NCBI GenBank assembly: GCA_963845755.1
Contig: CAWJTV010000039.1
Coordinates: forward strand, 401,457-465,456
Length of the DNA: 64,000 bases
Direction of reading: 5' to 3'
Origin: an uncultured Planctomycetota bacterium
GTDB lineage: Bacteria > Planctomycetota > Planctomycetia > Isosphaerales > Isosphaeraceae
In this document: piece after piece, positions 42,530 through 62,871 of the stretch
Position numbering within the stretch: position 1 is the first letter of the stretch
Layout: the number at the start of each line of letters is the position of its first letter
Translations under genes and position numbers: made by a program
The notes under the pieces: generated by a model
What the model saw: the letters and a program-made list of their open reading frames with translations, nothing else
Told to the model about the DNA's origin: nothing
Databases searched by the model: none

Positions 42530-43326
42530 AGGCGTTTCGCCTTCTTGAGGATACCGTCAGGGCGGCGGGCGCCGCGACGGAACGTCTGCAACGGCGTCCT
42601 GGCGAAAGGGTGTCGTCGTTCGATCCTGGCCCGAAGGTCGAGCGATCGATCGCGGGCGGGGAACCGGCATGGCCACTCGAGTTCGCGATCGGGGCCGGGG
42701 TATTCCTCGGCCAGGGGGGATGGCAGATTGAGCCGACCGCATCCCTGTCTGATGTCGCGATCGTGCGGACGACGGCGATCCGAGCCTTCGATGGTTCAAT
42801 TCACGATCGAGGCAGAAGGGTCACCGGGTCCTTCTGACCCTTACCGTCGCGGACCACGAGGTGGTTCTGTCCGAGATCGACATCCTCAATCCGGAGGTGG
42901 CGGGACTCCATCAGCCTCCGCCCGGAGTTGTCCAACCGACTGGCCCTGAGTCGTTCATCGCCATCAAGCCGGGCCAGAAGCGCGCGGACCCCGGCGCGCA
43001 TCGCGACGACGGCGAGACACTCTGGCCGCCTCGCCCTGGAGGCGTCGATGCGACCTTGCAAGAGGTGATCGTGGACGGACTGGTCGAGCAAGACCCAGGC
43101 ACTCAACGCCTGGTTCTGCGTCGAGGCCGCGTCATTCTCCTCGACCGCCAGGTGAGTCAGGAACGCTTCCCGTTCGCGTTCGCCAATACGAGGAAATGCC
43201 GCCTACCTGGACGAGGATGAACCGCGAGACCCATGGAACGTGGGGATCCTCGGTGCGAATGCTGGAATGCTACGTCCAAATGACGGATCGCACCTGATCG
43301 AGCTGCTTTGGCGATCGATCCGTGAT
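42530..43326 (-). pseudogene. intI: Decayed, 3'-truncated integron integrase
   Basis: PKQLDQVR, AFLTHLAVEENDAASTQNQALSA, HLRIEDVDLGQNHLVVRDGKGQKDPVTLLP and the IntI-specific insertion LAEEYPGPDRELEW.CRFPA...ERRH; internal stops and frameshifts; HxxR and catalytic Tyr missing. Confidence 0.9.
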
Positions 43327-43384
43327 CCGGTCTCGGGCGTCTTTCCTGGTCGGTTTTGGTCCGTATAAGCCATAGAGATTCTCG

Positions 43385-43413
43385 TTGCAAACGTCGTCTT
43401 TATCGATCATAAT
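43385..43413 (+). promoter_or_regulatory. Candidate cassette promoter Pc
   Basis: TTGCAA-17 nt-CATAAT pointing into the array, about 70 bp before attI. Confidence 0.65.
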
Positions 43414-43428
43414 CAATCTTACGATGTG

Positions 43429-43491
43429 GAATATACGCCCATCTGGGCGGAAAAGAATACGCCCGCGCGGGCTTCGAAACAATGGTTAGCC
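43429..43491 (+). other. Candidate attI site
   Basis: GAAACAATG-GTTAGCC (core 43485-43491) with no attC arm; direct repeat ATACGCCC twice upstream. Confidence 0.7.
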
Positions 43492-43506
43492 GGCGGGAGT
43501 TCTCCT

Positions 43507-43773
43507 ATGCCACGTCTGCGGTTCACGCGAGCAGAGGCGGAGGCTGAAGCGACACGCCGGGCGACTCAACTGGTCTCCGGCATACCCGGCGCCGCCTCGA
43601 GCCGTTGCATCGGCGCGATCCCCGATCCGTTGGCTCCCCGTGGCCGCAGCACGAAGCATCCGGTCTCCTGGATCGTTGCCTTCGTTTTCCACCCACCCGA
43701 GGTCATAATCGACGGCGGTGAGTTGTTTGTCGCGGTCGATCTGGAGACCGGGGCGGTGGCGATCCGGGAATGA
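43507..43773 (+). CDS. Cassette 1: small hypothetical protein (immunity-protein-like)
   Basis: W.VAF...DGGELFVAVD..TG.V pattern; bounded by attI and attC. Confidence 0.6.
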   Translation: MPRLRFTRAEAEAEATRRATQLVSGIPGAASSRCIGAIPDPLAPRGRSTKHPVSWIVAFVFHPPEVIIDGGELFVAVDLETGAVAIRE

Positions 43774-43871
43774 ACAGCGGCGTGCCACCGTCTAACGAGG
43801 CGATGCAGCGGACCCGCCTGTCGGCGGGCCTCTGATCTATGGCGTTAGCCGTCGTTCGAGGAGCAGTGGGC

Positions 43872-44303
43872 ATGGCTTCTGAAGTCGAGGAGGTCATGGC
43901 GGAACCCGAGTACTTCTTTCGCTTCGGTGCCACGCTCCGGATCTTTGGGGACATCGGAGACTTGGAGGCGATCACAGCCGAACTTGGTATCGTGCCAACT
44001 CATGCGCATCGGAGGGACGAGAAGCTTCTGCCGACCTCTCCCAGGGGCTACGAGCATGACATGTGGTCCTACTCCGCTCCGGTACCCCGGGGTCGTCCGC
44101 TGCAAGTCCATCTGGAATCGCTCTGGCTCGCCGTTCGGCCGCACGTCGCCTATCTGAAAGGCTTGAAGGAGCGCCTGTCCGTCAACGTGTATTGCAGCTA
44201 CCATACGAATTGCAGCACCGGAGGCTTCGAGGTTGATCACCGAGCCCTGATCATCTTCGCCGAGCTTGAGGTGCCGTTCGGCGTGTCCGTCGGCATAGCG
44301 TGA
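43872..44303 (+). CDS. Cassette: DUF4279-like protein, copy 1
   Basis: ATLRIFG...ITAELGIVPT...WSYS...HLESL. Confidence 0.75.
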   Translation: MASEVEEVMAEPEYFFRFGATLRIFGDIGDLEAITAELGIVPTHAHRRDEKLLPTSPRGYEHDMWSYSAPVPRGRPLQVHLESLWLAVRPHVAYLKGLKERLSVNVYCSYHTNCSTGGFEVDHRALIIFAELEVPFGVSVGIA

Positions 44304-44386
44304 CACGTCTAACGAGGCGATGCAGCGGACCCGCCTGCGGCGGGCCGCTGATCTTGGACGTTAGGCGGCAGTGTGGAGGCGACGCT

Positions 44387-44653
44387 ATGCGGTCGGCCAC
44401 CCGATCTTCTCTATTCGTGGTCGCGTGGTCGGTCGGGCTGGCCTCGCGCTACGCGAACCGCGGTGATCCTCAGTGGGCCACGAAGTTGCGGGTGGCGTGC
44501 CTGTTCTTCGTCCTCGGAGGAGCCTTGCTCTGGTCGATCCAGAAGATCTCCAAGCGGCCGTGGCCTTGGTTCGTAGAAGGCATCGCACTACCGTTCGTCG
44601 CCGGCGGCTTGATCTACGGGATCGTCGCCGTACGCAACGCGTTCAGGGGATAG
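44387..44653 (+). CDS. Cassette: small membrane protein
   Basis: GGAGG RBS, three hydrophobic segments. Confidence 0.6.
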   Translation: MRSATRSSLFVVAWSVGLASRYANRGDPQWATKLRVACLFFVLGGALLWSIQKISKRPWPWFVEGIALPFVAGGLIYGIVAVRNAFRG

Positions 44654-44755
44654 CTTTGTCTAACAATGCGATGCAGCGGACCCGCTGTGCGGGCCGCTGA
44701 TCTTGGGCGTTAGGCCGCAGAAGGCATACGACTCGTTGAGGCATCAGCACCCGAT

Positions 44756-45346
44756 ATGCTCGAATTGCGATGGGAAGGACCATTCGGATGGCCGGGCCTT
44801 GATCCGGTGGAGCTGCTGACCTCTCTGGCCGACTCTCCGGTGGCGAGTTCCTCTGGCGTTTACCTCTGGACCGTGGAGTATCTCGACGGGTTCCTTATCT
44901 ACGCTGCTGGGATTACTCGGCGGCCGTTCGTGAGAAGGTTTCGCGAACACACCCGCGCTTACCGAGCCGGGATCTACACTCTTTTCGACATGACGTCCCT
45001 CAAACGGGGCGTCCGAGAAGAGCTCTGGCACGGCTTCTGGATGAGGAGGCGAACGGCGGAGAAACAAAGCGAATACGAGAGGCGTCGCGACGAGCTTCGC
45101 GCGGCTGCCGAACTGCAACTATCGAGCTACCGGGTCTTCGTTGCGCCGCTCGGGCCGGTGCCGCGGTTGCTGGAACGTATTGAAGCGTCGATCATGAATG
45201 CGCTTTATTGTGCCCCGGCACCGGCGTCCGACATTCCAGACCGCGGTATGGCATTGGCTCCGCGTTGGCGGACAGAAGAGGCGATAATCGTGCGGAATGT
45301 CACAGGTTTTCTACTTCATGCTCTCCCCGACGAGTTCGTGGTGTAA
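44756..45346 (+). CDS. Cassette: GIY-YIG-like putative nuclease
   Basis: SGVYLW...IYAAGIT...RRFREH...IE. Confidence 0.6.
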   Translation: MLELRWEGPFGWPGLDPVELLTSLADSPVASSSGVYLWTVEYLDGFLIYAAGITRRPFVRRFREHTRAYRAGIYTLFDMTSLKRGVREELWHGFWMRRRTAEKQSEYERRRDELRAAAELQLSSYRVFVAPLGPVPRLLERIEASIMNALYCAPAPASDIPDRGMALAPRWRTEEAIIVRNVTGFLLHALPDEFVV

Positions 45347-45419
45347 AGCTATAATCATGGCCTTCTATGAACACGCTGAGGTCAAGGCCCCCGACTAATT
45401 TTTTCTCGGCGCACCTGCG

Positions 45420-45790
45420 GGCGCGGACAGCGATCGCTCCGAGTCCGACAGCGTGTGTCCTGGCTCCCCGTTTGCGGGGAGCCAGGACGCACGCTGTTTC
45501 TCGTTCTCCAGACAACGCCGGTGGTCCTGCGATCGACACTCTCCTTGTCCTTGCCGAAGAACTCCCGAGACCGCGGCTGGTGGCTTCGTCACGCGCGTCG
45601 CGCCTTCCAGGAGGCCGCGACCACCTTCTCTCCGTGTCGATCCTCACTCAAGGGACCGAGCACCCGTTACTGTGTTCGTCCGCGGACGACTCCGAAGCCA
45701 GGTGTGGGGACAAACCCATCTAACAAACGGTCGGCTGCCGCCAACCAGACGTGCTCGCCCGGTCGCCCCCTCCAGCCCGGTACGCTCGTG
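45420..45790 (-). ncRNA. Candidate bridge/seek RNA in the 3' non-coding end of the IS110 (boundaries approximate; copy 2 about 57860-58230)
   Basis: Nested stems (gatcgacac/gtgtcgatc, gaccgagcac/gtgctcgcccggtc, ggtgg/ccacc, agcc/ggct) with loops matching target and donor; long terminal hairpin at 45448-45497. Confidence 0.65.
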
Positions 45791-45855
45791 ATTCTTCCCT
45801 CAAGGCCCCTGGTTTCATTTTAGTAATAATGTTATTACATGAACAAATTCAGTGG

Positions 45856-47042
45856 TCATTCGACCTTTGCTGATGCAGGCAGTCGGCCGTTGAGCTTCTT
45901 CTCCCACGGCGTGAATTCCGCCCCCTCGGGCACCTCGCCCTGCTCCAGGTATCGCCAGAGCGCGATCAACAACTTGCGAGCCAGTGCCACGATCCCCACC
46001 TTCCGCGCCCGCGCGTTGCCCTCGCCGAACCGACGCTGATACCACTGGCTCAAGGCGCTATTGGGCTGCCAGTGCAGCCAGCCCCAGGCGATCTCCACCG
46101 CCATCCACCGCAGACGGCGATTGCCCGCCTTGCTGATCCCTTGCTCACGACGGCTGTCGCCGCTGTCGTACGGCGTCGGCGCGAACCCGGCCAGGCTCGC
46201 CAGCTCGCGGCGATTCTTGATCGCTCGCCAGCCGAAGAACTCGCGGACGAACAGCGTCGCGCTCATCGGGCCGATCGCCTTGAGGTTGAGCAAGAGCCGC
46301 AGCTTCTCGACGTCGGCCGTCGCGTCGTCGCGGAACGCACGCCTCTGGGCGTTCTCCAGGTCGCGCGCCTGGCGGTCCACCAAAGTCCAGCGGTCGAACT
46401 CGCGGAGGATGCGGGCACTCAGCTCGGCCGGGACCGGCCTCCCATCCCATTGGCGAAGTTGGCCGAGGCGTTCCGGCAACTGGTCATCGACCTCGACATC
46501 GAGGCCGAGGTTGGCGAGCAGGCCTTTTATGCGATTGGAGTGCTCGGTGCGCTGACCCTTGACGGCGATCAGCTCGCGGTGGGGCTGACGGCGATCTTCG
46601 TCGTCGGGCGTGGGGATGCGGACGACGCTCCAGAGCTTGTGCTCGCCGCCGTGATAGCGGATCAACATCGTCAGGAGCTTGCCGACATCGAGACGATCGC
46701 TCTTGGCGCGACGCGCGCGGCGGTTGACCTCGATGCTGGCGGCGTCGACGACCAGGTTCGTGACGGCGTGGTGTTGGAGATAGCGATGGAGCCAGAAGCC
46801 GTCGCGGCCGGCCTCGTAGCAGGAGAGCACGGGGGCGTCACCGGGGAGGGCGAACCGGTGCCTGGCGAGAGGATCTCGCGCTGAAGGGCGTCGAGATCGC
46901 GAGCGGCGATGGTGCGGAGCCGCGGCTTCTGGGCCATGGCGGTGGTGAAGGCGAGGTTCCAGGAGGTCCAGCCGAGTTCGAACGCGAGGTAGAGCGTGTT
47001 CGAGCCGGTGGTGATAGGATGAAGGTCGTGGGTCGCTGACAT
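45856..47042 (-). CDS. IS110 transposase/recombinase (indel near 46865)
   Basis: YLAFELG, SCYEAG, AKSDRLD (RuvC DEDD-type, first D replaced by E), PYDSGDS, ISKAGN, ALARKL. Confidence 0.95.
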
Positions 47043-47272
47043 GGTGAGACTCCGTGGTTGAGAGGGATTTGGTGAAAGACCTCTTCTGAGGAGCTTACCG
47101 TCAGCGGCTCACAGTTTTCTGCCCGGTCGCTCCGGACATAGTATCTAACAATGCGATGCAGCGGACCCGCTGCGCGGGCCGCTGATCTTGGTCGTTAGGC
47201 AGAGGCAGAGGACCTCACCGGCGGCGGTGCGGGAAGTTCCGATTTGCCCTGGCTGGCGGGAGGACGAGCCCA

Positions 47273-48250
47273 ATGGACCTGACCATGGAGCGATGGGAAG
47301 GCGCCGCGGATTCCGAACGTCGGACCATCGCAGTTCGCGTGGCGAGGGAATTGCCGGCCGGCTTCGAATTTGACTGTATCCGGCGCTGTCACATGGGGGA
47401 CCAACAGCATCATGTCGCCCTCTTCCGGCAGGAAACCTCTATTTTCGTGCTAATTCCTGGCGGACCGGTGGTTCTCGGGTATGATGTGGAGCGACCGTGG
47501 CAACCCACCTCCGACGAGCTGGAGAGCTGGCAGGAAGACCGCGACGATTGGTTCGGGCCGGACAACACGATCCAGGAGTCCATCGCCGCGGTCACATTGC
47601 GGCCCCGTCGGGTCGAATTCACTCCCTTCCTCATCGAGACGAGTCCCGAGGAATTCGGCCGGGAACTGGTCGGACTCGACGATCCCATCGTACAGACGAT
47701 AATCCGACACGCTCGGGCCATACCCCACGGTGTCCGAGATGGGGAGGACGCGAGTCCGCAGGATGGAGGATGGATCGATCTTGGCCGAGCGGCACATTGA
47801 CCGCGCCCGGACTCACGCGGACCTGGCGGAGCAACTGGCGGCAGCCGGGTTCCGGTTCCCGACTTCGGACGAGTGGGAATATGCTTGCGGCGCGGGGCGA
47901 CGACACTCTTCCGATGGGGTGACCACGTCCCGTGTAACTGGCCGGACCGGCTGGCCGGCGGGTATGGGGATTCGCCAGGAGGCTTCCCCTATGATTGGGA
48001 TCCCACAGGGGAACCCAATGCCTTCGGAATTGTGATCGGGTTCAACTCCTACAAGAACGAACTGGTCGCGCAAATCGGCACGACACGCGGCGGGGATGGC
48101 GGCGATGCCGCCTGCGGCGGGGCGAGCCAATTCATCCAGTGGCTGAGGTACGCCACGGCCTACTTCGAAGAGCGGTCCTGTCGATTCGACCCGGCGAAGC
48201 CAATCGCGATCGGGTTCACTGTTGGTCGCCGGGTGCTGGCCTTGTCGTGA
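47273..48250 (+). CDS. Cassette: FGE-sulfatase (SUMF1)-like domain protein; frameshifted
   Basis: FVLIPGG..VLGYD, GFRFPTSDEWEYAC, TTLFRWG, PNAFG. Confidence 0.7.
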
Positions 48251-48341
48251 TCCACGGTCGGGTGGCTCGCCTAACCCGGCGTTGCAGCGGACCCGCCTGG
48301 CGGCGGGTCCGCTGAACTTGTCGTTAGCCGGCGGAGGCGTC

Positions 48342-48698
48342 ATGCCCGAAGGCGATGTCACTCAGCCTGGGCGTATTGCCTTCGTCCACTCGATCCGCGA
48401 CCTCCTGCGCGAGATCCGCGAGCGGCCGGCCCTCTGGCTCAACGCCAAGACGCTGACCGGCCTGAAGTGCCTGCTCATGGGCTACGAGATCGCCTGCGCT
48501 GTACACGACATTGCCGAGACGGAGCAGCTTCCCGACGACGTCCCCTGGCAGGGCTTCAGCGATTGGCTGGCGAAGCGATATGATAAAGGCGGTTGGACGG
48601 TCGATTGGCATTGGCTGCTGGTGGAGCACTCGCGATCGCAGGAAGAGGCATTCGACCGCTTCTTCGATCTGCTTGCCGAGTACGAATCCGGCGGCTAA
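48342..48698 (+). CDS. Cassette: conserved hypothetical helical protein
   Basis: LLREIRERPALWL...GY...FFDLLAEY; stop codon inside attC R''. Confidence 0.7.
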   Translation: MPEGDVTQPGRIAFVHSIRDLLREIRERPALWLNAKTLTGLKCLLMGYEIACAVHDIAETEQLPDDVPWQGFSDWLAKRYDKGGWTVDWHWLLVEHSRSQEEAFDRFFDLLAEYESGG

Positions 48699-48760
48699 CA
48701 AAGCGATGCAGCGGACCCGCTGCGCGGGCCGCTGATCTTTATCGTTAGACTGGTGGGGCC

Positions 48761-49097
48761 ATGAGCGTCACCGACGACCTCGACCGGCTGTTCCCGGGCC
48801 ACCGCTCGCCCGAGCGGGCTGCCGATTGGGAGGCGCTCGAAGCAGCGGCTTGCCTACGGGCAGTCCGTCACTGGTACGGTCGTCGTCAAATCCCCGTTCG
48901 GGGCGTGGGTCGACCTCGGCGTCGGTTTCCCTGCCCTGCTGGAGATCATCGTCATTGTGGGCCTGACGCCCGAGAAATATCGTGCGGGTGACTGGTGCCC
49001 TGTCGGTAGCGAAGTCTCGGCGTTTGTCGGTGGATTCCGCGATGACTCTCATCAGATAGGGCTGTGGCAGGTGCCGGTCGGCCATGGCCGCGTCTAA
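48761..49097 (+). CDS. Cassette: S1/OB-fold domain protein; frameshifted
   Basis: VTGTVVVKSPFGAWVDLG...PVGSEVSAFV; stop in R''. Confidence 0.6.
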
Positions 49098-49174
49098 CTC
49101 CGCGTTGCAGTGGACCCGCCTGCGGCGGGCCGCTGAACTTTCCGTTAGGAGGCATTCGTCTCAGGTCGTATACA

Positions 49175-49615
49175 ATGCGGTGGGTGATTCGCGTAGTTGC
49201 TTCCGCAGTCGCTGTCGCAAGCCTCGGGGCTGGCTGGTGCCTTTACCAAGGTATCTCCGCGTCGCTACATGCGGAGTACGGCTTACACGCCACGTTGCTC
49301 ACAGTCGAGTTGCTGCGGGATTATGTACTCGAGCACGACGGCCAATGGCCGCGTTCCTGGGCCGACCTCGAGGGTCTACCTCCGCGGAAACGGGCGATGT
49401 ACGAGTGGCCGATGGATTCGCGGGAGGTGCAACAGTATGTCGCGGTTGACTTCTCTGCCGATCCACAACGGTTGGTGAAGCAGAGTGTTGATGAGTTCGA
49501 AGCCGTGCGTCCGATCGGACCCTATTACCTTTTCAAGCACTATGGTTCGGTTGAGGCCCTCCTTAAAGCCGTTCGTGAGACGGAGAACCAGAGCGAGGGT
49601 CGCGGATCACCATAA
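49175..49615 (+). CDS. Cassette: membrane-anchored hypothetical protein
   Basis: N-terminal TM; YVLEHDGQWPRSWADL. Confidence 0.65.
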   Translation: MRWVIRVVASAVAVASLGAGWCLYQGISASLHAEYGLHATLLTVELLRDYVLEHDGQWPRSWADLEGLPPRKRAMYEWPMDSREVQQYVAVDFSADPQRLVKQSVDEFEAVRPIGPYYLFKHYGSVEALLKAVRETENQSEGRGSP

Positions 49616-49705
49616 TCGGGGCGCGAGCTAACCCAGCGTTGCAGCGGACCCGCCTGCGGCGGGCCGCTGAACTTTTCGTTAGCCGTCGTTCGAGGAGCAG
49701 TGGGC

Positions 49706-50137
49706 ATGGCTTCTGAAGTCGAGGAGGTCATGGCGGAACCCGAGTACTTCTTTCGCTTCGGTGCCACGCTCCGGATCTTTGGGGACATCGGAGACTTGGA
49801 GGCGATCACAGCCGAACTTGGTATCGTGCCAACTCATGCGCATCGGAGGGACGAGAAGCTTCTGCCGACCTCTCCCAGGGGCTACGAGCATGACATGTGG
49901 TCCTACTCCGCTCCGGTACCCCGGGGTCGTCCGCTGCAAGTCCATCTGGAATCGCTCTGGCTCGCCGTTCGGCCGCACGTCGCCTATCTGAAAGGCTTGA
50001 AGGAGCGCCTGTCCGTCAACGTGTATTGCAGCTACCATACGAATTGCAGCACCGGAGGCTTCGAGGTTGATCACCGAGCCCTGATCATCTTCGCCGAGCT
50101 TGAGGTGCCGTTCGGCGTGTCCGTCGGCATAGCGTGA
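49706..50137 (+). CDS. Cassette: DUF4279-like protein, copy 2
   Basis: Identical translation to 43872-44303. Confidence 0.75.
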   Translation: MASEVEEVMAEPEYFFRFGATLRIFGDIGDLEAITAELGIVPTHAHRRDEKLLPTSPRGYEHDMWSYSAPVPRGRPLQVHLESLWLAVRPHVAYLKGLKERLSVNVYCSYHTNCSTGGFEVDHRALIIFAELEVPFGVSVGIA

Positions 50138-50212
50138 CACGTCTAACGAGGCGATGCAGCGGACCCGCCTGCGGCGGGCCGCTGATCTTGGACGTTAGCC
50201 AGCGGAGGGCTC

Positions 50213-50494
50213 ATGGCCGACGATCTTGTGCACCTCCTGCTCGACATCAAGCTCGCCGGCGACGGGTTCGCATCGCCGGACGAGTTTGATCTCCGGGACC
50301 GGCTCGTTGAGCGGATCGAGCGACTGGGCATCGGTGAGGTCGGCGGCTATGGCTCGGGAGTCGGCGGCATGGACATCTCCGTGCTCGTCGCTGATGAAGC
50401 TGAAGGTCGGGGGCGGCTGAGTCGACTCATGCAGGAGGTCGCGCCGGATGCTCGCTTCACCATCGAGGTACTTGCAGACGAGGATGACGGCTAA
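50213..50494 (+). CDS. Cassette: small acidic hypothetical protein
   Basis: GGAGG RBS; stop in R''. Confidence 0.7.
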   Translation: MADDLVHLLLDIKLAGDGFASPDEFDLRDRLVERIERLGIGEVGGYGSGVGGMDISVLVADEAEGRGRLSRLMQEVAPDARFTIEVLADEDDG

Positions 50495-50587
50495 CGAGGC
50501 GATGCAGCGGACCCGCCTGTCGGCGGGCCGCTGATCTATGGCGTTAGCCGGCCTGCATTCCGAACGAGGTGTGACCGAGGCCGGCAT

Positions 50588-51202
50588 ATGAGGAGGCCAC
50601 GTATTTCGATCGCCGGACTCATGGTGTTTGTCGTGTTCCTCGGCATCACCTTCGCCGCGTTGCGCACCGATACGGAATCCTGGTCACGTGTGATGCTGAG
50701 CCTCGCGATCGCCTCAAACGGCGTTGCCCTGATCGGCCGCCTCTCCACTCGAAGCCCCAATGAGTTGGCCTGGACCGGCTATTTAATCTTCGGGGCAGGC
50801 TACCTCGTGCTCTGCATCGGCCCATGGTGTGACGAGCACATCATGCCGCACCTCGTGACAACGCCACTTATTGATGATCATTATACGAAGCTGCAGTATA
50901 CTCCTACGCATGCCGGAGAGCGGGTCTGGACAACGGATGGGCCCGGTCGAGGGTTCGCGGGAGGCGAGACCTTCGGCGATATCGGCGCCGAGACGGCCAG
51001 TTTCAATGTCGCACACGATCGTGGGACCACGTCTCGATACAATGCGACTCAACTCCGCGCCATCAGCCCGGATGGCTATCGACGACTTTGCCATTCCACC
51101 ATATCCTTCTGGACGGGCCTTCTCGGAGCGCTGCTGGCACGTTGTCTCCGAGGGATCAATCACGATAACTCGATGCGTAGAGCGGCCTCCGGGTCCGCCT
51201 AA
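50588..51202 (+). CDS. Cassette: membrane protein with planctomycete-type RISIAGLM N-terminus
   Basis: MRRPRISIAGLMVFVVFLG; stop in R''. Confidence 0.7.
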   Translation: MRRPRISIAGLMVFVVFLGITFAALRTDTESWSRVMLSLAIASNGVALIGRLSTRSPNELAWTGYLIFGAGYLVLCIGPWCDEHIMPHLVTTPLIDDHYTKLQYTPTHAGERVWTTDGPGRGFAGGETFGDIGAETASFNVAHDRGTTSRYNATQLRAISPDGYRRLCHSTISFWTGLLGALLARCLRGINHDNSMRRAASGSA

Positions 51203-52290: not shown

Positions 52291-52321
52291 ACCTTTTCGT
52301 TAGGCGGCTACCATCGGCGCC

Positions 52322-54083: not shown

Positions 54084-54670
54084 ATGTCCGCACGCGGCTC
54101 TTTCGTCACGAATCCACTCTCTCGGTCGTCGAAATTGATGGCCGAATCGACACGCCGAATCCCTCTGTTTTGGTTGTCGTTCCTTTCGACGGAGGACATC
54201 GATTGCGCCGAGCACCCGGGACAATTCAAGATCGACCGGAAGCAGGCGATCGACAGGGCCTCAAACAATCTTCCCTTTTCTTGAAAATCTTCCCAGAAGT
54301 CGGCGTGTTTGGGGAAATGGCCCGCAGCTTTCTCGAGTTACTCCGATCGCAACGGGCCAAGGCCGTCGGAATCGAGGTCATTGAACTCTTGGAGGAGTTG
54401 CAGGACGGGGAGGGTCACGAGGGGATGCCGAAGCTCCGAAATGCTGTGGAGGCTATAGAGCGCCAAGACGCTGATTATTCGCTGACCGTGCCACCGCGAA
54501 CCGTCAAGAATCCCTTCACCCGCGAGGATACGCAGCTCAAGGAACAGAGGTTTTCCTCTACGCGGGAGATGCTGCTCTACATTTGCTCGCTTCGACCCGA
54601 GGATCTGAACTCAAAAAAGAGAGAGGAAGTACAACATGCGATTGTCGGTTACATTTGGGAGTGGGAGTAA
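54084..54670 (+). CDS. Cassette: hypothetical protein, paralog of 60619-61206; frameshifted
   Basis: Shared RIPLFWLSFLSTEDID and PKLR.AVEAIER...VG.IWEWE. Confidence 0.7.
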
Positions 54671-54769
54671 ACGGTGTAAACCAAATCTGAAGCCTCGCCT
54701 AACCCGCGGTTGCAGCGGACCCGCTGCGCGGGCCGCTGAACCTTGGCGTTAGGCCGAGAAGGGAGCACG

Positions 54770-55228
54770 ATGAAACGGCAGCCGATCACCCTGAATGGCC
54801 TCACCTCCGACGAAGTTCTGGCGTTGCCTGATGACCTCATCGACTCCCAGATCCTGTGCGGCGAGCCGCTGGTGTTCCGCGTCGGCACGGCGGATATCCT
54901 CGGCCGGTTCTGGGTAGCCGACGGGTCGCTGGTGCTGGAGTTGGGCCACATCGATGGGGGCGGCGAGGGAGTGCTGCCAACCATCTCTGAGCTGGCCAAG
55001 CGCTATGCACAACGTCGGGGATTGGTAGCGCTCGACTGGCGGGTTCATGCGCTCAATTGCGCACGGCCCAACCTCAAGCTACGTCGTGTGCTGGAGCGGC
55101 GTGGGTTCGTGGTCGCCGATGTGGCAGGCACCGGCCCCTGCTACCATCAAGTTCAGCCGGTGCAATCAGGACGCGCATTTACGGAACCTAACGAAGCATT
55201 GCAGCCGACCCGCTGGGCGGGCCGCTGA
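54770..55228 (+). CDS. Cassette: hypothetical protein, possibly GNAT-like fold
   Basis: HIDGGGEG...N..LRRVLERRGF. Confidence 0.55.
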   Translation: MKRQPITLNGLTSDEVLALPDDLIDSQILCGEPLVFRVGTADILGRFWVADGSLVLELGHIDGGGEGVLPTISELAKRYAQRRGLVALDWRVHALNCARPNLKLRRVLERRGFVVADVAGTGPCYHQVQPVQSGRAFTEPNEALQPTRWAGR

Positions 55229-55314
55229 ATTTGGGCGTTAGGAGGCGCGGGGTTGAGGTGATTGCGCCGGGTCTCACATTGCGACCCTTCGCACTCCCGC
55301 GGTAGGATGGGAGT

Positions 55315-55616
55315 ATGCTGACGCCAATATTTCTTGACGTCGATCCGCGTACGCTGCACCTGCCGCCCTCATCACGCTGGGGCGCGACCCTGGTAAGCTG
55401 CAGCGGCAGATCGCGCGATTCGGGAGGTCGCCGGTGGGCATGCCCCCACCGTGGGTCTACCGGGGCTTCGATGGAGCCCTGGTGATCTCTGATGGCGTAA
55501 CGCGGGCGACGCGTGTCGCCAAGCTCCTGCCCGGCGTGCTCAAACGCGTCGAGGTCATCAGCGATCAGAAGACGCCCGTCGGCCACTATCCTACAGTAGG
55601 AGATCGCCTGCCATGA
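55315..55616 (+). CDS. Two-gene cassette, gene 1: ParB/sulfiredoxin-like small protein (indel near 55386)
   Basis: FLDVDPRTLHLP...GMPPPWV...VISDGVTRATR. Confidence 0.6.
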
Positions 55617-55828
55617 TCGATCCGGTGCGGAAAGACGTGTTCCATGCCTTGGAGGAGTTAAGCGAGTCTTGTCCGGAATACCGGTTCGGCCAGATGATCG
55701 CCAACTTGACGATGCTGGCGCGGGGGGATGCCGAAGGTGCCCTATGGGATCTGGAGGATGAGGAATTGCTCTCTGCGGCGCGGAAGCATTTGTCGGACTG
55801 GAACGAGCGGCACGCCTCAGTCGCCTAA
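55613..55828 (+). CDS. Two-gene cassette, gene 2: small acidic helical protein
   Basis: ATGA overlap; PEYRFGQMI...WDLEDEELL; stop in R''. Confidence 0.7.
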   Translation: MIDPVRKDVFHALEELSESCPEYRFGQMIANLTMLARGDAEGALWDLEDEELLSAARKHLSDWNERHASVA

Positions 55829-55970
55829 CCCGGCGTTGCAGCGGACCCGCGCGGCGGGCCGCTGATCTTTGGAGTCAGCCGGCTCCGCTGCCGAGGGCGT
55901 CTCGCGCGTCCCTCCGGTGTCGGCGGCCTGCGGTCCCGCCCGAGCCCGCCGAAGCGATCCGGCCACCCGC

Positions 55971-55999
55971 TTGCTAAGAGCCCTCGCGCGCGGCATGCT
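55971..55999 (+). promoter_or_regulatory. Candidate promoter in a gene-less cassette (55874-56177)
   Basis: TTGCTA-17 nt-CATGCT; no credible + strand ORF between the two attC sites. Confidence 0.4.
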
Positions 56000-56202
56000 G
56001 GTGTTATAGGTCCACGACCCCGCGGGCGCCGTCCGCGGCCGGAGCACCGGAGGTGCGGCGCGGGGGCCATCGCGGCGGGGGTAGGCCGTCTCACACGTCG
56101 CTCCAGCGGATCCGGCCCGCTGCCGCGTCTCGTGACATCGGAGCTGTGCCCGGCGGGCCGGTCCGGCGATCTGGTTTGTTATTTGCTTCGAGGTCAGGTG
56201 AG

Positions 56203-56745
56203 ATGTCCGCACGCACCTACATGGTTTCCTTACAGTCCCTGGATCCCATCAGAAGAGCGATCAGCTCGAAGGATCGCGATCTATTGGACGCATTGCTTCC
56301 GGCTGTATCTGAGAATTTCCGATCCGCCGCCGAGGGGATGATCATGGGCCCTCCTCCTGCGAAGGAACCCGGATGCTGGGGTTTTCTGGTTGAACCACTC
56401 GCCCAACACTTCGGCTTGTCCCCTCGCCGCTTGCCACTCGACGATTGGAAGCACTACTACGTCTGGAATGATTACCGTTCGATTGCAGATCCTCACTTGT
56501 CAGGACAGGGGAAGAAGCTCTTGGAATTCATCGATTCCGGGAGGCCGTTCGTTGGTACCAGTATGGATCACGACGGAAGTATGTTCGCCTGGCTAACTGC
56601 CGCTGAGGCCAAGAGCCTCTTGGATGAATTGACCGCAATTGATGCCGCGACGTTTGATGAGTTGGACGAGTTTCATGAAGAGTTGATCGAATCGTTGCAG
56701 CAAACCGTAGATCGCGGCGCAGACCTGTTCGTCGGCGCTTGCTGA
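56203..56745 (+). CDS. Cassette: acidic conserved hypothetical protein
   Basis: IRRAISSKD..LL; WLTAAE; GADLFV. Confidence 0.65.
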   Translation: MSARTYMVSLQSLDPIRRAISSKDRDLLDALLPAVSENFRSAAEGMIMGPPPAKEPGCWGFLVEPLAQHFGLSPRRLPLDDWKHYYVWNDYRSIADPHLSGQGKKLLEFIDSGRPFVGTSMDHDGSMFAWLTAAEAKSLLDELTAIDAATFDELDEFHEELIESLQQTVDRGADLFVGAC

Positions 56746-57044
56746 CCGCAACCAACACCGTGTTGCAGCAGACGCCGGCCCGCTCGACAGGCACCAAACG
56801 GCGGACCCGGCTAACGAGGCGATGCAGCGGACCCGCCTGTCGGCGGGCCGCTGATCTTGATCGTTAGAGTCGTCCTGCGTAGGATCCCTGCCGCAGTGCG
56901 CGCATCTGGGGATTCCGAATTCCGGATTCGCGATTCCGGATTCCCGGATCATTCCCCTTCGGGAATCCGGAATCGCGAATCGGGAATCCCGATGGGGTTG
57001 CGGCCGAAGGTCGCGTTAGGGGTTGTCGTGCGGAGGCGTTCGCG

Positions 57045-57839
57045 ATGTCCACTGCCGATGAAGCGCTGCTGGCTGCATTCGACGGGCACCACGTCGAGGG
57101 CGTCCGCGCCGCGCTGGATGCGGGAGCTGACCCGAGTTCCCCGATTCGAGGCAAGCCGCCCATCTATTGGCTGCTCGAAGAGTACATGCGATCCGATCGA
57201 CTCCCGGCTTGCCTCCGTTTACTGTTTGAGCGCGGGGCCGCGCTCGACGACCCGGCCGTCGTGCCCGTACTGCTGAATGATCCGGAAACGATCAGGGCTG
57301 CTGTCAGGGCAACCCCGTCACTCCTCGAGCACCGTACCACCCTGACCTCATCGTTTACGTCGCTGGTCGGTGTATCCCTGCTCCACGTGGCCGCCGAATA
57401 CGGGCACTTGGATGCCGCACGCGCCCTGGTCGAAGCCGGTGTCGATGTGAACGCGACGGCCGCCGTCGATGAGGATGGCCTCAACGGGCACACCCCGCTG
57501 TTCCACGTGGTGAACTCGCTCGGGAACCGGTCCGAGCCGATCATGCGCTTGCTTCTGGCCGCCGGCGCCAAGCCAGACGTGCGTCTGACCGGAATCTCGT
57601 GGGGGAAGGGGTACCCTTGGGAGACGACGTTCTTCGACGTCACGCCCATCTCGTACGCCCAGATGGGGCTCCTTCCACAGGTACACAGGAGCGAGCGAGA
57701 GATCTACGCAAATATTAGACTTCTGTTGGAAACCGCGGGCCGGAAAGTGCCGTCCCTGGCCAATGTTCCCAATCGCTACCTGCAACCTAAGTCAAAGATC
57801 TTCTTCTATGAACACGCTGAGGTCAAGGCCCCCGACTAA
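57045..57839 (+). CDS. Cassette: ankyrin-repeat protein; original stop removed by the IS110 insertion
   Basis: SLLHVAAEYGHLDAARALVEAGVDVNA, GHTPLFH. Confidence 0.85.
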   Translation: MSTADEALLAAFDGHHVEGVRAALDAGADPSSPIRGKPPIYWLLEEYMRSDRLPACLRLLFERGAALDDPAVVPVLLNDPETIRAAVRATPSLLEHRTTLTSSFTSLVGVSLLHVAAEYGHLDAARALVEAGVDVNATAAVDEDGLNGHTPLFHVVNSLGNRSEPIMRLLLAAGAKPDVRLTGISWGKGYPWETTFFDVTPISYAQMGLLPQVHRSEREIYANIRLLLETAGRKVPSLANVPNRYLQPKSKIFFYEHAEVKAPD

Positions 57840-59584
57840 TTTTTTCTGGGCGCCCTGCGGGGCGCGGACAGCGATCGCTCCGAGTCCGACAGCGTGTGTC
57901 CTGGCTCCCCGTTTGCGGGGAGCCAGGACACACGCTGTTTCTCGTTCTCCAGACAACGCCGGTGGTCCTGCGATCGACACTCTCCTTGTCCTTGCCGAAG
58001 AACTCCCGAGACCGCGGCTGGTGGCTTCGTCACGCGCGTTGCGCCTTCCAGGAGGCCGCGACCACCTTCTCTCCGTGTCGATCCTCACTCAAGGGACCGA
58101 GCACCCGTTACTGTGTTCGTCCGCGGACGACTCCGAAGCCAGGTGTGGGGACAAACCCATCTAACAAACGGTCGGCTGCCGCCAACCAGACGTGCTCGCC
58201 CGGTCGCCCCCTCCAGCCCGGTACGCTCGTGATTCTTCCCTCAAGGCCCCTGGTTTCATTTTAGTAATAATGTTATTACATGAACAAATTCAGTGGTCAT
58301 TCGACCTTTGCTGATGCAGGCAGTCGGCCGTTGAGCTTCTTCTCCCACGGCGTGAATTCCGCCCCCTCGGGCACCTCGCCCTGCTCCAGGTATCGCCAGA
58401 GCGCGATCAACAACTTGCGAGCCAGTGCCACGATCCCCACCTTGCGCCTGCGCGTTGCCCTCGCCGAACCGACGCTGATACCACTGGCTCAAGGCGCTAT
58501 TGGGCTGCCAGTGCAGCCAGCCCCAGGCGATCTCCACCGCCATCCACCGCAGACGGCGATTGCCCGCCTTGCTGATCCCTTGCTCACGACGGCTGTCGCC
58601 GCTGTCGTACGGCGTCGGCGCCAACCCGGCCAGGCTCGCCAGCTCGCGGCGATTCTTGATCGCTCGCCAGCCGAAGAACTCGCGGACGAACAGCGTCGCG
58701 CTCATCGGGCCGATCGCCTTGAGGTTGAGCAAGAGCCGCAGCTTCTCGACGTCGGCCGTCGCGTCGTCGCGGAACGCACGCCTCTGGGCGTTCTCCAGGT
58801 CGTGCGCCTGGCGGTCCACCAAAGTCCAGCGGTCGAACTCGCGGAGGATGCGGGCACTCAGCTCGGCCGGGACCGGCCTCCCATCCCATTGGCGAAGTTG
58901 GCCGAGGCGTTCCGGCAACTGGTCATCGACCTCGACATCGAGGCCGAGGTTGGCGAGCAGGCCTTTTATGCGATTGGAGTGCTCGGTGCGCTGACCCTTG
59001 ACGGCGATCAGCTCGCGGTGGGGCTGACGGCGATCTTCGTCGTCGGGCGTGGGGATGCGGACGACGCTCCAGAGCTTGTGCTCGCCGCCGTGATAGCGGA
59101 TCAACATCGTCAGGAGCTTGCCGACATCGAGACGATCGCTCTTGGCGCGACGCGCGCGGCGGTTGACCTCGATGCTGGCGGCGTTAACGACCAGGTTCGT
59201 GACGGCGTGGTGTTGGAGATAGCGATGGAGCCAGAAGCCGTCGCGGCCGGCCTCGTAGCAGGAGAGCACGGGGGCGTCACCGGGGAGGGCGAACCGGTGC
59301 CTGGCGCAGAGGATCTCGCGCTGAAGGGCGTCGAGATCGCGAGCGGCGATGGTGCGGAGCCGCGGCTTCTGGGCCATGGCGGTGGTGAAGGCGAGGTTCC
59401 AGGAGGTCCAGCCGAGTTCGAACGCGAGGTAGAGCGTGTTCGAGCCGGTGGTGATAGGATGAAGGTCGTGGGTCGCTGACATGGTGAGACTCCGTGGTTG
59501 AGAGGGATTTGGTGAAAGACCTCTTCTGAGGAGCTTACCGTCAGCGGCTCACAGTTTTCTGCCCGGTCGCTCCGGACATAGTAT
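57805..59584 (-). mobile_element. IS110-family element, copy 2, inserted at the attC R'' CT core (CT at 57803-57804 and 59585-59586)
   Basis: Same ends as copy 1; removal restores TTCTAAC and the upstream stop codon. Confidence 0.92.
58296..59482 (-). CDS. IS110 transposase/recombinase (indel near 58445)
   Basis: Same motifs as copy 1. Confidence 0.95.
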
Positions 59585-59668
59585 CTAACGAGGCGATGCA
59601 GCGGACCCGCCTGACAGCGGGCCGCTGATCTGGGTCTTTAGGCGGTATTCCGATTGCACGGGGGCGAC

Positions 59669-60031
59669 ATGAAGGTCGGTGATGACCCATACTTCACGGC
59701 GACTGATAAGGCCAAGTCGCATCCGCCCCGCGGCAAAGCGCTGCTCGTGGTGCGAATCCCTTGGTGCCTCTCCTGGCTCGCCGTGGCGTTCCTGTCCATG
59801 CAGGTGTTCGTCTCACCGATCATCTACTCGTCGCGGCTGGCGACCGGGGCCTACATCATGATGGAGCTCGGGGCCGGGGCGCTGGCTGCTATCGGAGCCT
59901 CCGGCGTGCTCGTCGCTCGACTCGTGCGGTCAAGGGGCTCGTCCGATCTGTACACGAGGAGGCTGGTTTGGTCTATACTGAGGGGCCTGCTTGTCGTCTT
60001 CATTATATTGACGATGATCGAGGTCGCCTGA
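59669..60031 (+). CDS. Cassette: three-TM membrane protein
   Basis: Hydrophobic ORF between attC sites. Confidence 0.6.
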   Translation: MKVGDDPYFTATDKAKSHPPRGKALLVVRIPWCLSWLAVAFLSMQVFVSPIIYSSRLATGAYIMMELGAGALAAIGASGVLVARLVRSRGSSDLYTRRLVWSILRGLLVVFIILTMIEVA

Positions 60032-60117
60032 GGGAGTGCCGGGCTAACGAAGCATTCCAGCGGACCCCACTGCGCGGGGCCGCTGATCTGGGTCGTTGGA
60101 CGGCACGATCGAATCCC

Positions 60118-60516
60118 ATGTTAGGACAAGTCTTCGGATGTACTTCTTGCGACTTCGGTTTCTCGTCCGGGTGGTCCCACCATGCCGGGGGGCAACTGAT
60201 GGTGTGCCGTCACTGCGCGACCCACTTCGTCCTCGGCGGTGGGCAATCATGCTGGGGCGAAACAACGGGCGAGCAACTCCAGCTCTTTCGATCCGATGAC
60301 GAGAAGGATGTCCCGACTGGCGTGCGAGTCAGGGTCCAGGTCCGTGTCGTCCCCGACAGCGAGGACTGGGACGGCATCTCATACCTGGATCTCCCCGACC
60401 TCGCCTGCCCGCATTGCAACCGTCCCGGCGCTTTGGTTCAATCGTTCGTGGTAGGTCATACGTGTCCCGCGTGTCATCAGGGCACCATTATGGTGACGAG
60501 CTCCTGTATCTATTGA
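60118..60516 (+). CDS. Cassette: multi-CxxC zinc-ribbon protein
   Basis: CTSC, CRHC, CPHC, CPAC. Confidence 0.7.
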   Translation: MLGQVFGCTSCDFGFSSGWSHHAGGQLMVCRHCATHFVLGGGQSCWGETTGEQLQLFRSDDEKDVPTGVRVRVQVRVVPDSEDWDGISYLDLPDLACPHCNRPGALVQSFVVGHTCPACHQGTIMVTSSCIY

Positions 60517-60618
60517 GCGCGGTCTAACAAGGCGATGCAGCGGACCCGCTGCGCGGACCGCTGATCTCGAGGGTTAGGCGTCAGGTCCCGATTCCGACCT
60601 TTGGCATAGGCGTTATCA

Positions 60619-61206
60619 ATGTCCGCCCGCGGCTCTTTCGTCACGAATCCAGGCGCTCGGTCGTCGAAATTACTGACCGAGGCGACGAATCGGATCCCTC
60701 TGTTTTGGTTGTCGTTCCTCTCGACGGAGGACATCGATCGCGCCGAGCACGCGGGACAATTCAGGATGGACCGGGTGCGGTCAATCGAACGGGCCTCAAA
60801 CAGCCTTCCCTTTTTCTTGGAACTCTTCCCGGATGTCAACGTGTTCGAGGGAACGGCCGGCAACCTTCTCAAGTTGGTCAGATCCAAAAGGGCCAAGACC
60901 ATTGGAATCGAGATCATTGAACTGTTGGAGGAGTTGCAGGACTCGGAGGGCAACGAGGGGATGCCGAAGCTCCGAACCGCTGTGGAGGCCATCGAGAGGC
61001 GAGACGCTGGCTATTCGCTGACCATTCCAGCGCGAACAATCAAGAATCCCTTCACCCACGAGGATATGCATCTCAAGGAACGGAGGTTTGGCTCTACGAG
61101 GGAGATGCTGCTCTCCATATGCTCGCATCGAACTGAGGATCTGCAATCAAGAAAGAAAGAGGAAGTTCAAGATGCGATTGTCGGTCGGATCTGGGAGTGG
61201 GAGTAA
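60619..61206 (+). CDS. Cassette: hypothetical protein, paralog of 54084-54670
   Basis: Intact 195 aa ORF. Confidence 0.75.
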   Translation: MSARGSFVTNPGARSSKLLTEATNRIPLFWLSFLSTEDIDRAEHAGQFRMDRVRSIERASNSLPFFLELFPDVNVFEGTAGNLLKLVRSKRAKTIGIEIIELLEELQDSEGNEGMPKLRTAVEAIERRDAGYSLTIPARTIKNPFTHEDMHLKERRFGSTREMLLSICSHRTEDLQSRKKEEVQDAIVGRIWEWE

Positions 61207-61297
61207 TCGGTGCAAACCAAACCGGAAGCCGCGCCTAACCCCTCATTGCAGCGGCCCCGCTTCGCGGGCCGCTGAATTCATCCGCTAGGGGGCTCAA

Positions 61298-61612
61298 GTG
61301 AACCGCCTCTACTTCGCGTGTCCGAACTGCCGCGTCTATATCGATGCGGGCTACCGGTGGGCCTACTGGCTCCTGGAAGAACCCAGCATCGCAAGGCACA
61401 ACGCGGGCGTCGATATCGAGGCGGTTCTTGCCACGGCCGGGTATTGGACCGCGCTTCCGGAAGACCGCTCCGAATGGCTTATCGAACGAATCTTGCCCGC
61501 TGTCCGTCAGTTCTTGCACGAACATCGTGCCCATGGCATTGTCTACACCGACGAAGGGGCTCTCTGCAATGAAGACTCGCTTTACTATGACTGGTCGGAA
61601 GTCGAGACCTAG
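61298..61612 (+). CDS. Cassette: small CxxC protein
   Basis: YFACPNCRVYIDAG...FLHEHRAH. Confidence 0.7.
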   Translation: MNRLYFACPNCRVYIDAGYRWAYWLLEEPSIARHNAGVDIEAVLATAGYWTALPEDRSEWLIERILPAVRQFLHEHRAHGIVYTDEGALCNEDSLYYDWSEVET

Positions 61613-61691
61613 CGTCCCCTAACCCGGCGTTGCAGCGGACCCGCCTGGGGCGGGCCGCCAAACCTTTTCGTTAGACGGCGGAGGATTCGAC

Positions 61692-62135
61692 ATGGGAGCC
61701 GAGCCTTACTGGTACGTTGTCAAGTACGAGGACGACATCGACTCTGCTCTGCAATCGCTCAGGCGTCGAGAGTTCCTCGCCGGCCGATACAATCCCGTGA
61801 TGCCGTTCCCCGGATTCCCGCTTGGACCCAATCCCCCCGCGCCCGGTGCCGGTCACGCGACCATCGCGGAGGCGATCGCGGAGGCCGGTGCCGACGGTAC
61901 CCGGTCCATCCTGGACCTGGAGCGCGTCTCGGACGAGCTGGAGTTCGGGGTGGTCGCGACCCTCGCAGACGAGAAGCTGATACGCCTATTCGGCACGACG
62001 AGGCCGTCGCGCCAGGTGGTCGAATCGAACCACGATTTCTGGGACGGCATCGAGAGGGGCGAGGGCATCTACGTCGTTCTCTACAAGAACGACAAGCCGG
62101 ATGAGTTTTTTTTCGCAGGGTACTCGTGCGACTAG
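61692..62135 (+). CDS. Cassette: conserved hypothetical protein
   Basis: MGAEPYWY...GTRSILD...FFAGYSCD; GGAGG RBS. Confidence 0.75.
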   Translation: MGAEPYWYVVKYEDDIDSALQSLRRREFLAGRYNPVMPFPGFPLGPNPPAPGAGHATIAEAIAEAGADGTRSILDLERVSDELEFGVVATLADEKLIRLFGTTRPSRQVVESNHDFWDGIERGEGIYVVLYKNDKPDEFFFAGYSCD

Positions 62136-62216
62136 AGGCATCACTCGCTTAACCTTCGGTTGCAGCGGACCCGCCTGAGGCGGGCCGCCAAACCTTTTCG
62201 TTAGACGGCGAGGTCG

Positions 62217-62576
62217 ATGGACGACATCCCTGACAGCTCCAACTTCTTCGCCTCGCTGCATACTTCGCTCTCCCGGCGGCGAGTCGCCGGGCTCTTCGCG
62301 CGGCTGGGCTGGAGCGTCCGTAAGTGTAGCTGGACGGACTACGAGATCCGGAGCCCGTTCGCCGAATTGGTCATCGAGGCGGAGTCACTGATCCTCATGC
62401 ATGGCCCGGTGGCCGAAGTGGAGATCAACGCCAACCGAATCCTTGTCCCCCTCAGGCATGCCGGGGTACGCTACGCTGCGGAATGCTACAGTGCGGGCAA
62501 TGACCTCCTCCAGGAGTTCCGCTGGGGGACCGTCTCACACGGCGATGCAGCGGACCCGCCTGCGGCGGGCCGCTGA
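62217..62576 (+). CDS. Cassette: hypothetical protein; reads through a mutated attC R''
   Basis: GTCTCAC in place of GTCTAAC removes an in-frame TAA. Confidence 0.65.
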   Translation: MDDIPDSSNFFASLHTSLSRRRVAGLFARLGWSVRKCSWTDYEIRSPFAELVIEAESLILMHGPVAEVEINANRILVPLRHAGVRYAAECYSAGNDLLQEFRWGTVSHGDAADPPAAGR

Positions 62577-62617
62577 TCTTTAGCGTTAGGCCAAGGAAAG
62601 AATGAGGTCCAGCGGCG

Positions 62618-62860
62618 ATGCGATGGCTCCTGCCGAGATTCACGATCCGCCGTCTCCTGTTGGTGACGTCCATCGCTTGCCCGCTTTCGGCCTCGCTTAT
62701 CGGCTATATCACGGGCATCTACTGCCCGCTTTGCTTCTCCGGTGAGACCAACCGAGAATATCGCTGCCTCTTGATTAAATACACTCCAGATGGGCAGAGA
62801 GAAGAGTCTCTCGGAACCCCGCTCGGTTGGCGCTGCCGTCGATGCGAATTGTTGTGGTAG
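62618..62860 (+). CDS. Cassette: small protein with RFTIRRLLL N-terminus and CxxC pairs
   Basis: CPLC...CRRC. Confidence 0.6.
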   Translation: MRWLLPRFTIRRLLLVTSIACPLSASLIGYITGIYCPLCFSGETNREYRCLLIKYTPDGQREESLGTPLGWRCRRCELLW

Positions 62861-62871
62861 GTCGGGCGCCT

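Follow-up and report, generated by a model that had tools for sequence, protein, structure and literature searches.

Likely cassette exchange in trans at a chromosomal integron with a dead integrase gene

Integrons with a broken integrase gene (intI) are common, and such loci are usually read as frozen; the available parts of two surveys put the share of broken intI genes at a third to 46% (Nemergut 2008, Cambray 2011; PMC2426708, PMC3108266). In the accessible text of Cury 2016 (PMC4889954), arrays having two attC sites or more with no intI nearby are defined as attC-site clusters that lack integron integrases (CALINs), 15 of 279 CALINs are reported to have an intI pseudogene nearby, and it is speculated that such elements exchange cassettes. 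Supplementary file 12 of that paper lists, for Phycisphaera mikurensis, a complete integron of 9 attC sites and a CALIN of 13. The chromosomal integrons of Xanthomonas, as presented in the available part of 10.1101/2025.06.18.660453 (citing Gillings 2005), combine homogeneous attC sites with an intI that carries stops, frameshifts and deletions; they are fixed beside ilvD, and inactivation goes with stable arrays. Here we describe an integron with 27 or 28 attC sites and a dead intI in a stretch of 64,000 nucleotides (the window, positions 401457-465456 of contig C39), which belongs to a 14.27-Mb assembly of 49 contigs and whose planctomycete affiliation is inferred from the carriers of its attC pattern. 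An earlier note on the window, made from its letters alone, had proposed a large sedentary integron with a dead integrase and short, host-specific attC sites.

The array itself belongs to a familiar type; the novelty lies in the evidence of its continued use through an integrase encoded elsewhere, for which it is one of five docking sites. Like the Phycisphaera system, the genome under study (G000; other G numbers denote genomes of relatives, and C numbers contigs) combines a complete integron with a larger integrase-less array of the same attC family, with matching R and L boxes. Set against the accessible text of Cury 2016 (PMC4889954), the differences are that attC is 108 bp long in Phycisphaera and 58-63 bp here, that four integrase-less arrays are present here and keep the promoter Pc and the recombination site attI, and that near-identical cassettes date exchange to a time after intI loss. 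Measured against the definition of a CALIN, the window array lacks a working intI yet retains an identifiable pseudogene together with attI-like and Pc-like sites. The available part of the Xanthomonas account (10.1101/2025.06.18.660453) describes a similar chromosomal array with a damaged intI and homogeneous attC sites; here, in contrast, five loci carry the platform, and young cassettes occur in the array whose intI is dead. Similarly, a Planctomycetes attC model built from 188 sites (model length 103), described in the available part of Ghaly 2021 (PMC8352920), shares with our locus the taxon-conserved chromosomal attC of this phylum, and the earlier statement that chromosomal integrons are little characterised there is only partly true. 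A literature search that covered few subscription journals returned no paper dating cassette entry after integrase loss across several attI copies, and the available portions of PMC8876359, PMC3321497 and PMC11023631 hold no passage on loading in trans.

The central observation is that the genome contains five platforms, each composed of a Pc-like promoter and an attI-like site, and one intact intI, and that four of the arrays share cassettes with borders at G/TT and without common neighbours. The likely explanation is that the integrase encoded on C3 loads the window array and three other integrase-less platforms in trans. As judged from the sequences, the window array is likely not frozen and still gains and gives cassettes.

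The decay of the window's own intI provides the clock for this argument. The pseudogene, which runs on the minus strand from 43373 to 42539 (Table 1), is interrupted by a TAG at 43272 and a TGA at 42803 and has suffered deletions of 4, 1, 1 and 7 nt, the last of these at about 42770; its homology stops at 42539, ahead of the HxxR, H and Y motifs. The damage goes beyond indels, with 216 substitutions in the coding part, and differences from the intact C3 copy amount to 21, 24 and 35% at codon positions 1, 2 and 3. In a tree of 16 intI sequences, the terminal branch for position 2 was 0.234 for the window and 0.033 for C3, so the changes fall on the window's own lineage; likewise, 42 of 187 outgroup-conserved position-2 sites differ in the window, against 11 of 187 in C3. 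Overall, the decay comes to about 0.2 substitutions per site. Contigs from the public sequencing runs X1, X3 and X4, which come from one study and perhaps from the same material as the assembly, show 0 differences over five 151-nt pieces (42943-43093, 42747-42897, 42539-42689, 42407-42557 and 42387-42537). Four lesions are matched in this way, among them the stop at 42803, the 7-nt deletion and the 3' truncation; the 5' lesions lie outside the listed pieces. No contig of these runs spans the array, and the runs contain only 7-12% of the sequence words. The earlier note had described in-frame stops, a lost catalytic C-terminus and damage exceeding the indel noise elsewhere, and all of this was borne out; the exact match of the public contigs to the lesions speaks against an intact intI that polished reads might have revealed. 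A segment that first appeared as a 26-bp insertion relative to C3 proved instead to be an ancestral stretch of 30 nt, lost in C3 and shortened by 4 nt in the window. The same 30-nt deletion is common to C3, C41 and C47 and does not occur in the window intI, which is therefore an older, separate copy.

Searching the genome with the platform gave exactly five matches (E <1e-43, with the next best at 0.025), on contigs of 137-782 kb and with different flanks beyond about 2 kb. Homology among the five ends at G/TT, and a different cassette follows in each. The arrays behind them comprise 8 short attC sites on C3, 27 in the window, 23 on C41, 15 on C18 and 9 on C47, or 82 in total, and two further arrays, on C34 (8 attC) and at 332-334 kb of C39 (4 attC), have no platform. 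In a search for other intI genes, as suggested by the earlier note, the only one above the TIGR02249 cut-off was that on C3 (485 bits, 330 amino acids), which aligns with VchIntI4 over residues 16-327, nearly its whole length. It is thus on C3, and not beside the window array, that the intact gene lies, and on C41, C18 and C47 intI is reduced to its first 63-66 model positions. The candidate Pc and attI of the earlier note were both recognised, and both appear to be kept in all five platforms. The Pc-like motif by itself was found once against 0.7 expected by chance, so the support for it is its conservation across the platforms. Between intI and the first cassette lies an apparent attI with a GTT crossover, the last 17 bases of which are identical in C3 and the window, and the C18 and C47 platforms are 97.7% identical over 2168 bp.

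Cassette exchange is documented by six of the 27 window units, all within the first 11, that have copies of at least 97% identity in the arrays on C3, C18 or C41. Cassettes 2 and 9 have different neighbours and show 0 differences in 508 positions; cassette 2 differs from the eighth C41 cassette at 1 of 508 and also matches the first, which sits on the C41 attI. Cassette 3 is identical to the third C18 cassette (0/341) and differs from the first C3 cassette at 9 of 341 positions, cassette 10 differs from the fourth C18 cassette by one gap only, cassette 11 from C41 cassette 14 at 5 of 697 positions, and cassette 7 from the seventh C18 cassette by 9 substitutions. In all ten pairs examined, cassettes have moved as single units cut at G/TT: identity stops within a few bases of the crossover and includes the unit's own whole attC, and neighbours are not shared. 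The copies of cassettes 2 and 3 that lie directly on attI, at C41 and C3, do so where attC homology is absent. Moreover, the attC score falls with distance from attI in the window (rho -0.42), C41 (-0.65), C18 (-0.70) and C3 (-0.86).

The order of events is read from the contrast between about 0.2 substitutions per site in the pseudogene and 0-0.7% between most shared cassettes: the integrase would have died first, and the cassette traffic would have come later. Since intI has drifted by about 0.2 per site while twin cassettes show no difference, the window's own intI could not have placed them, which argues for action in trans, and the C3 enzyme is the simplest source; the C3 attI ends in the same 17 bases. 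In the proposed mechanism, the C3 IntI would excise cassettes as circles from the folded bottom strand of attC, and any one of the five attI sites, or alternatively an attC, would receive the circles. The five loci would then act as a single cassette pool with five promoter-proximal positions.

Several points weigh against this reading. The assembly is 87.9% complete, and another intI may be missing from it. The C47 array shows no gradient (rho +0.27) and has no cassette in common with the window. Cassette 1, beside attI, is without a copy elsewhere, so recent use of the window attI itself is not evident, and a direction can be read for one event only, the duplication of cassettes 2 and 9, in which the array was the recipient; for cassettes 3, 7, 10 and 11 it could have been the source. 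In the relative G001 (87% complete), with three platforms, a 24-site array is kept though no intact intI was found, and no cassette was common to arrays within one genome in G001, G041, G042 or G043, where parts of the arrays were compared. Finally, the evidence that the platforms are conserved depends on the threshold: departures from the consensus at strictly conserved columns number 3 of 48 in the platform and 77 of 363 in the pseudogene (p 0.011), but with a looser threshold the platform figure becomes 9 of 69 (p 0.14), and the platforms had been found by similarity.

The strongest rival, which we nevertheless consider unlikely, is that of a frozen reservoir: gain would have ended with the death of intI, and the array would only donate, with the C3 integrase copying cassettes out of it. 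Such a reservoir would fit the unreadable direction of four of the five shared cassette types and the uniqueness of cassette 1. It also has precedents in the available parts of two papers, as intI inactivation accompanies stable arrays in Xanthomonas (10.1101/2025.06.18.660453) and CALINs were proposed as donors in Cury 2016 (PMC4889954). It is opposed by cassettes 2 and 9, which are identical over 508 nt with exact borders and different neighbours, so that one of them entered late, by the clustering of shared units at the attI end, and by the greater decay of the distal attC sites.

There is very little probability, in our estimate, that passing integrases, from mobile elements or an unassembled locus, have placed the cassettes in lieu of the C3 enzyme. 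The pool is indeed open between genomes, as homologues of 86-96% identity to window cassettes 6, 15, 22 and 23 in G001, G042 and G043 indicate, and 12% of the genome is missing; however, window cassette 3 and the first C3 cassette are 97.9% identical, and the two attI sites have their last 17 bases in common. Equally improbable is an artefact of assembly or binning, in which intI would have been broken by long-read error or arrays of different strains or species would have been placed in one bin. The bin is 87.9% complete with 3.3% contamination, and one-base frameshifts do occur elsewhere, as in an insertion sequence (IS) transposase near 46867, where the public contig has an extra base. Against this stand the 216 coding substitutions, which indel errors do not account for, the five public-contig stretches with no difference, and the platforms with different flanks beyond about 2 kb on long contigs; and were the bin mixed, the cell that carries the window would still depend on an integrase supplied from elsewhere. 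As for RecA-type recombination or gene conversion between similar attC repeats without an integrase, the 82 short attC sites in five arrays, their 78% mean column identity in the window and the presence of recA would allow it, but a stretch of about 60 bp with 78% identity is a short substrate for RecA, all ten pairs keep their own whole attC with identity stopping within a few bases of G/TT, the upstream flank differs up to the crossover wherever a copy is not preceded by an intron, and two copies abut attI, which shares only a short core with attC, so that this explanation is largely refuted and hardly credible.

Returning to loading in trans by the C3 integrase, a broader hypothesis can tentatively be put forward, although we hold it to be somewhat less than an even bet: that this is a distributed integron, in which a Pc/attI docking site was copied without integrase to several loci in a clade of planctomycetes with very large genomes and kept by selection, with one IntI loading all of them. 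The recurrence of several platforms in G001 (3), G072 (3) and G073 (5) is cited for it. If true, several first-position cassettes could be expressed at once for the cost of one enzyme, and the biggest arrays would be those with dead integrases. With regard to the spread of platforms, the truncated copies at C18:74083-76250, C47:23487-25652 and C41:42340-44120 each abut a dispersed repeat gene of 1.2-1.3 kb (about 12 copies), and in G043 a similar gene seems to begin right next to a platform without intI (L198); the dispersed repeat may represent how platforms spread.

The significance of the locus lies in sequence evidence for cassette exchange long after integrase death, which in the accessible text of Cury 2016 (PMC4889954) is only speculated upon. 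If this is correct, counts of active integrons that are based on an adjacent intact intI underestimate cassette traffic. With one enzyme, a minimal attC family and five attI copies of natural origin, the genome also lends itself to a direct test. Its applied importance is low, since Pfam, PADLOC and NCBIfam scans of the cassettes identified no gene for resistance or defence. Most cassette proteins are without a family, with only weak matches in PADLOC and NCBIfam, and Pfam named four of 30 open reading frames (ORFs) scanned in the cassette region (DUF4279, DUF4240, ankyrin and DUF7691, the last below cut-off).

The attC sites were located with a nucleotide profile made from 61 genome-wide seeds. 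It found 27 sites of 58-63 bp in the window, all on the plus strand between 43790 and 62590 (E 3.5e-17 to 1.7e-6), and no others; on the reversed genome the best match reached only E 0.37. The sites possess R''/R' cores, L boxes, a central spacer and bottom-strand extrahelical bases, and their bottom strands fold as expected of attC: the R boxes pair, the spacer stays unpaired, an L stem forms and two bases are extrahelical. Across 26 aligned sites, the duplicate at 50141 being omitted, 90% of cells are paired, and the covariation score was reached by 0 of 500 shuffles, which is not a probability as the sites are related. A long, decayed 28th site at about 56088-56184 folds with a z of -2.5, and the long-attC pattern, with 7 real matches against 5 on the reversed genome, is weak by itself; a further candidate at 56748-56800 was rejected, as it folds no better than shuffles. 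The second extrahelical base, a T, is nearly invariant; the first is C in 24 of the 27 sites where G is usual. In the Vibrio VCR, according to the available part of PMC2727003, a change of this G-to-C type cut integration 2.7-fold and did not lower deletion, and C at this position is tolerated by IntI1.

R'' matches the R' of its own cassette at a mean of 3.37 of five variable positions, compared with 2.58 for the next cassette's R' and 2.75 for shuffled cores (0 of 5000 shuffles as high). A perfect 7-bp match is found in 6 of 27 window sites (p 0.12) and in 29 of 74 over the five arrays. An integron with homogeneous short attC sites is upheld, as are the count of 28 sites with one consensus, given as 27 short sites plus the long decayed one, and the R'/R'' complementarity within cassettes. 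In contrast, the claim that many cassette stops lie inside R'' was overstated: by longest ORF, 5 of 27 do so, another 4 extend to the L' TGA, 12 stop 4-27 bp upstream and the remaining 6 are disturbed. An Rfam scan returned no attC family, and only matches to the palindromic REP-like family Acido-Lenti-1 at 42083-42297.

Nor can the attC sites be called host-specific. Their exact pattern occurs in 83 stretches of GTDB genomes, and of the 80 listed 76 are Planctomycetota, from 24 assemblies; the long form was picked up in Phycisphaera with IntegronFinder. The attC family is planctomycete-wide. Among 121 genomes of the bacterial family, 8 carry a match to the platform type, a weak one in two cases. 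In G072 only broken pieces of intI are present, and in G073 a single intI is split by frameshifts into three pieces; these two and G001 are incomplete assemblies with indel noise, and each has at most one near-complete intI. Five intI genes occur in G041, three of them full-length and two frameshifted, and G042 has a full-length intI besides two N-terminal halves. Several platforms per genome therefore recur, and sharing across arrays is shown for the studied genome alone. A decayed intI at G001:C7:234333-235036, where the attI core and Pc boxes have decayed too, possibly represents a contrast to the window platform.

With 27-28 sites, the array satisfies the operational rule of Cury 2016 for sedentary integrons (>19 attC). 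Sedentary in the stricter sense of a fixed locus is less well supported, as the flank at 33000-41000 gave nothing beyond short repeat matches in G001, a genome of the same genus, the flanks differ at the nearest platforms, those of G001 and G074, and related platforms stand at unrelated loci. The array had also been suspected to extend past the window; instead, it is broken off at 62870 by an IS remnant, the window end coincides with the contig end, and no overlap leading on to another contig was found from the window end, the C34 end or the C47 start.

Table 1. Coordinates of features in the window, counted from its first nucleotide
Feature	Position	Strand	Remarks
intI pseudogene, 2 in-frame stops and 4 frameshifting deletions, catalytic C-terminus (HxxR, H, Y) missing	42539..43373	-	
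Putative Pc-like promoter TTGCAA-17-CATAAT	43385..43413	+	both boxes identical in 5/5 platforms of the genome
attI-like site: two CGCCC-N4-GGGC(G/T) palindromes (43436-43449, 43460-43473), then core, crossover G43485/T43486	43430..43491	+	
Cassette array: 27 units with short attC end (one split by long attC) and last unit, attC lost behind IS remnant	43486..62869	+	
Cassette 2 (DUF4279)	43845..44360	+	same as cassette 9; 99.3-99.8% to two C41 cassettes, one first at C41 attI
Cassette 3	44361..44709	+	same as C18 cassette 3; 97.9% to first cassette of intact C3 integron
IS110-family element, at CT of R'' box, attC 4; long non-coding region downstream of transposase	45362..47146	-	
Cassette 7	48745..49144	+	97% to C18 and C41 cassettes
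Cassette 9, exact duplicate of cassette 2 (0 differences/508 nt)	49679..50194	+	
Cassettes 10 and 11	50195..51248	+	99.6% (10, with C18 cassette 4) and 99.4% (11, with the C41 unit 14 cassette)
Long decayed attC (28th site), long terminal loop as in Phycisphaera form	56088..56184	+	
Second IS110-family copy, in R'' of attC 21, 99.2% identical to first	57803..59586	-	NF033542, 145 bits, cut-off 140
Right-end remnant of third IS copy; array stops	62870..63215	-	
Separate repeated element up to contig end; ORF without family match	63216..64000	-	97% to C6 stretch from 63282 on

Three kinds of inserted element were seen in the arrays. The IS110-family element of the window, present at the CT of R'' as two complete copies and a remnant, is confined, with all 8 of its copies and fragments in the genome, to arrays or an attC, and its removal from attC 4 restores an R'' complementary to the cassette's own core. 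With its IS110-family transposase, a non-coding region downstream and antisense insertion near the 5' end of attC, it resembles the IS1111-attC elements ISKpn4, ISPst6 and ISPa21 as described in the available parts of PMC11187229 and PMC3001079. Those elements have subterminal inverted repeats of 11-13 bp, whereas only a 5-bp match was found between the ends of the window element. A short stretch of its non-coding region (45362-45855 and other copies) equals the attC target plus core on the transposase strand and varies between copies, making it a candidate target guide. In the arrays on C3, C41 and C47, but not in that of the window, a group II intron lies after R' on the top strand; its copies in C3 unit 3 and C47 unit 5 are interrupted by a serine-recombinase element, and C47 unit 5 has more than one intron copy. 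Finally, at C41:17590-19729, in G043 (L196/L197) and in G001 (L180), cassette and attC are separated by an antisense element that combines a Xer-like recombinase gene with another gene and may be a third kind of attC-targeting element. The tyrosine recombinase in the C41 array, likewise in an element between cassette and attC, was rejected as a second integrase, as the IntI-specific stretch is missing (model positions 181-214 unmatched).

Other observations concern the attI palindromes, the cassettes and the flank. The palindromes at 43436-43473, CGCCC-N4-GGGC(G/T) and 24 bp apart, are conserved in 18 platforms of six genomes. A reading of them as LexA boxes was discarded: no match lies upstream of recA, lexA or a second lexA-like gene, and the N4 spacing is not enriched genome-wide (119, vs 115, 86 and 83 for N3, N5 and N6). 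Cassettes 17 and 24 (54039-54748, 60574-61284) are older duplicates with 84% identity. On a contig of run X1 that covers window positions 50198 to 48752, the attC of cassette 2/9 is joined to a cassette-7 variant; this is the order of C41 units 8-9 without the intron, possibly the intron-free allele. The C34 array begins at the end of its contig; its first 344 bp share 95% identity with part of the C18 unit 14 cassette, and it may continue an array broken by assembly. In the left flank of the window (35256-40992) are genes for a VWA-domain protein, an H+-pyrophosphatase and an aldo-keto reductase; a DNA search of G001 recovered none of them. Lastly, the REP-like repeats matching Acido-Lenti-1 lie beside the intI end (42083-42297) and in cassette 15 (53070-53330), and a repeat of about 150 bp with many copies in the genome forms the start of cassette 21 (56875-57030).

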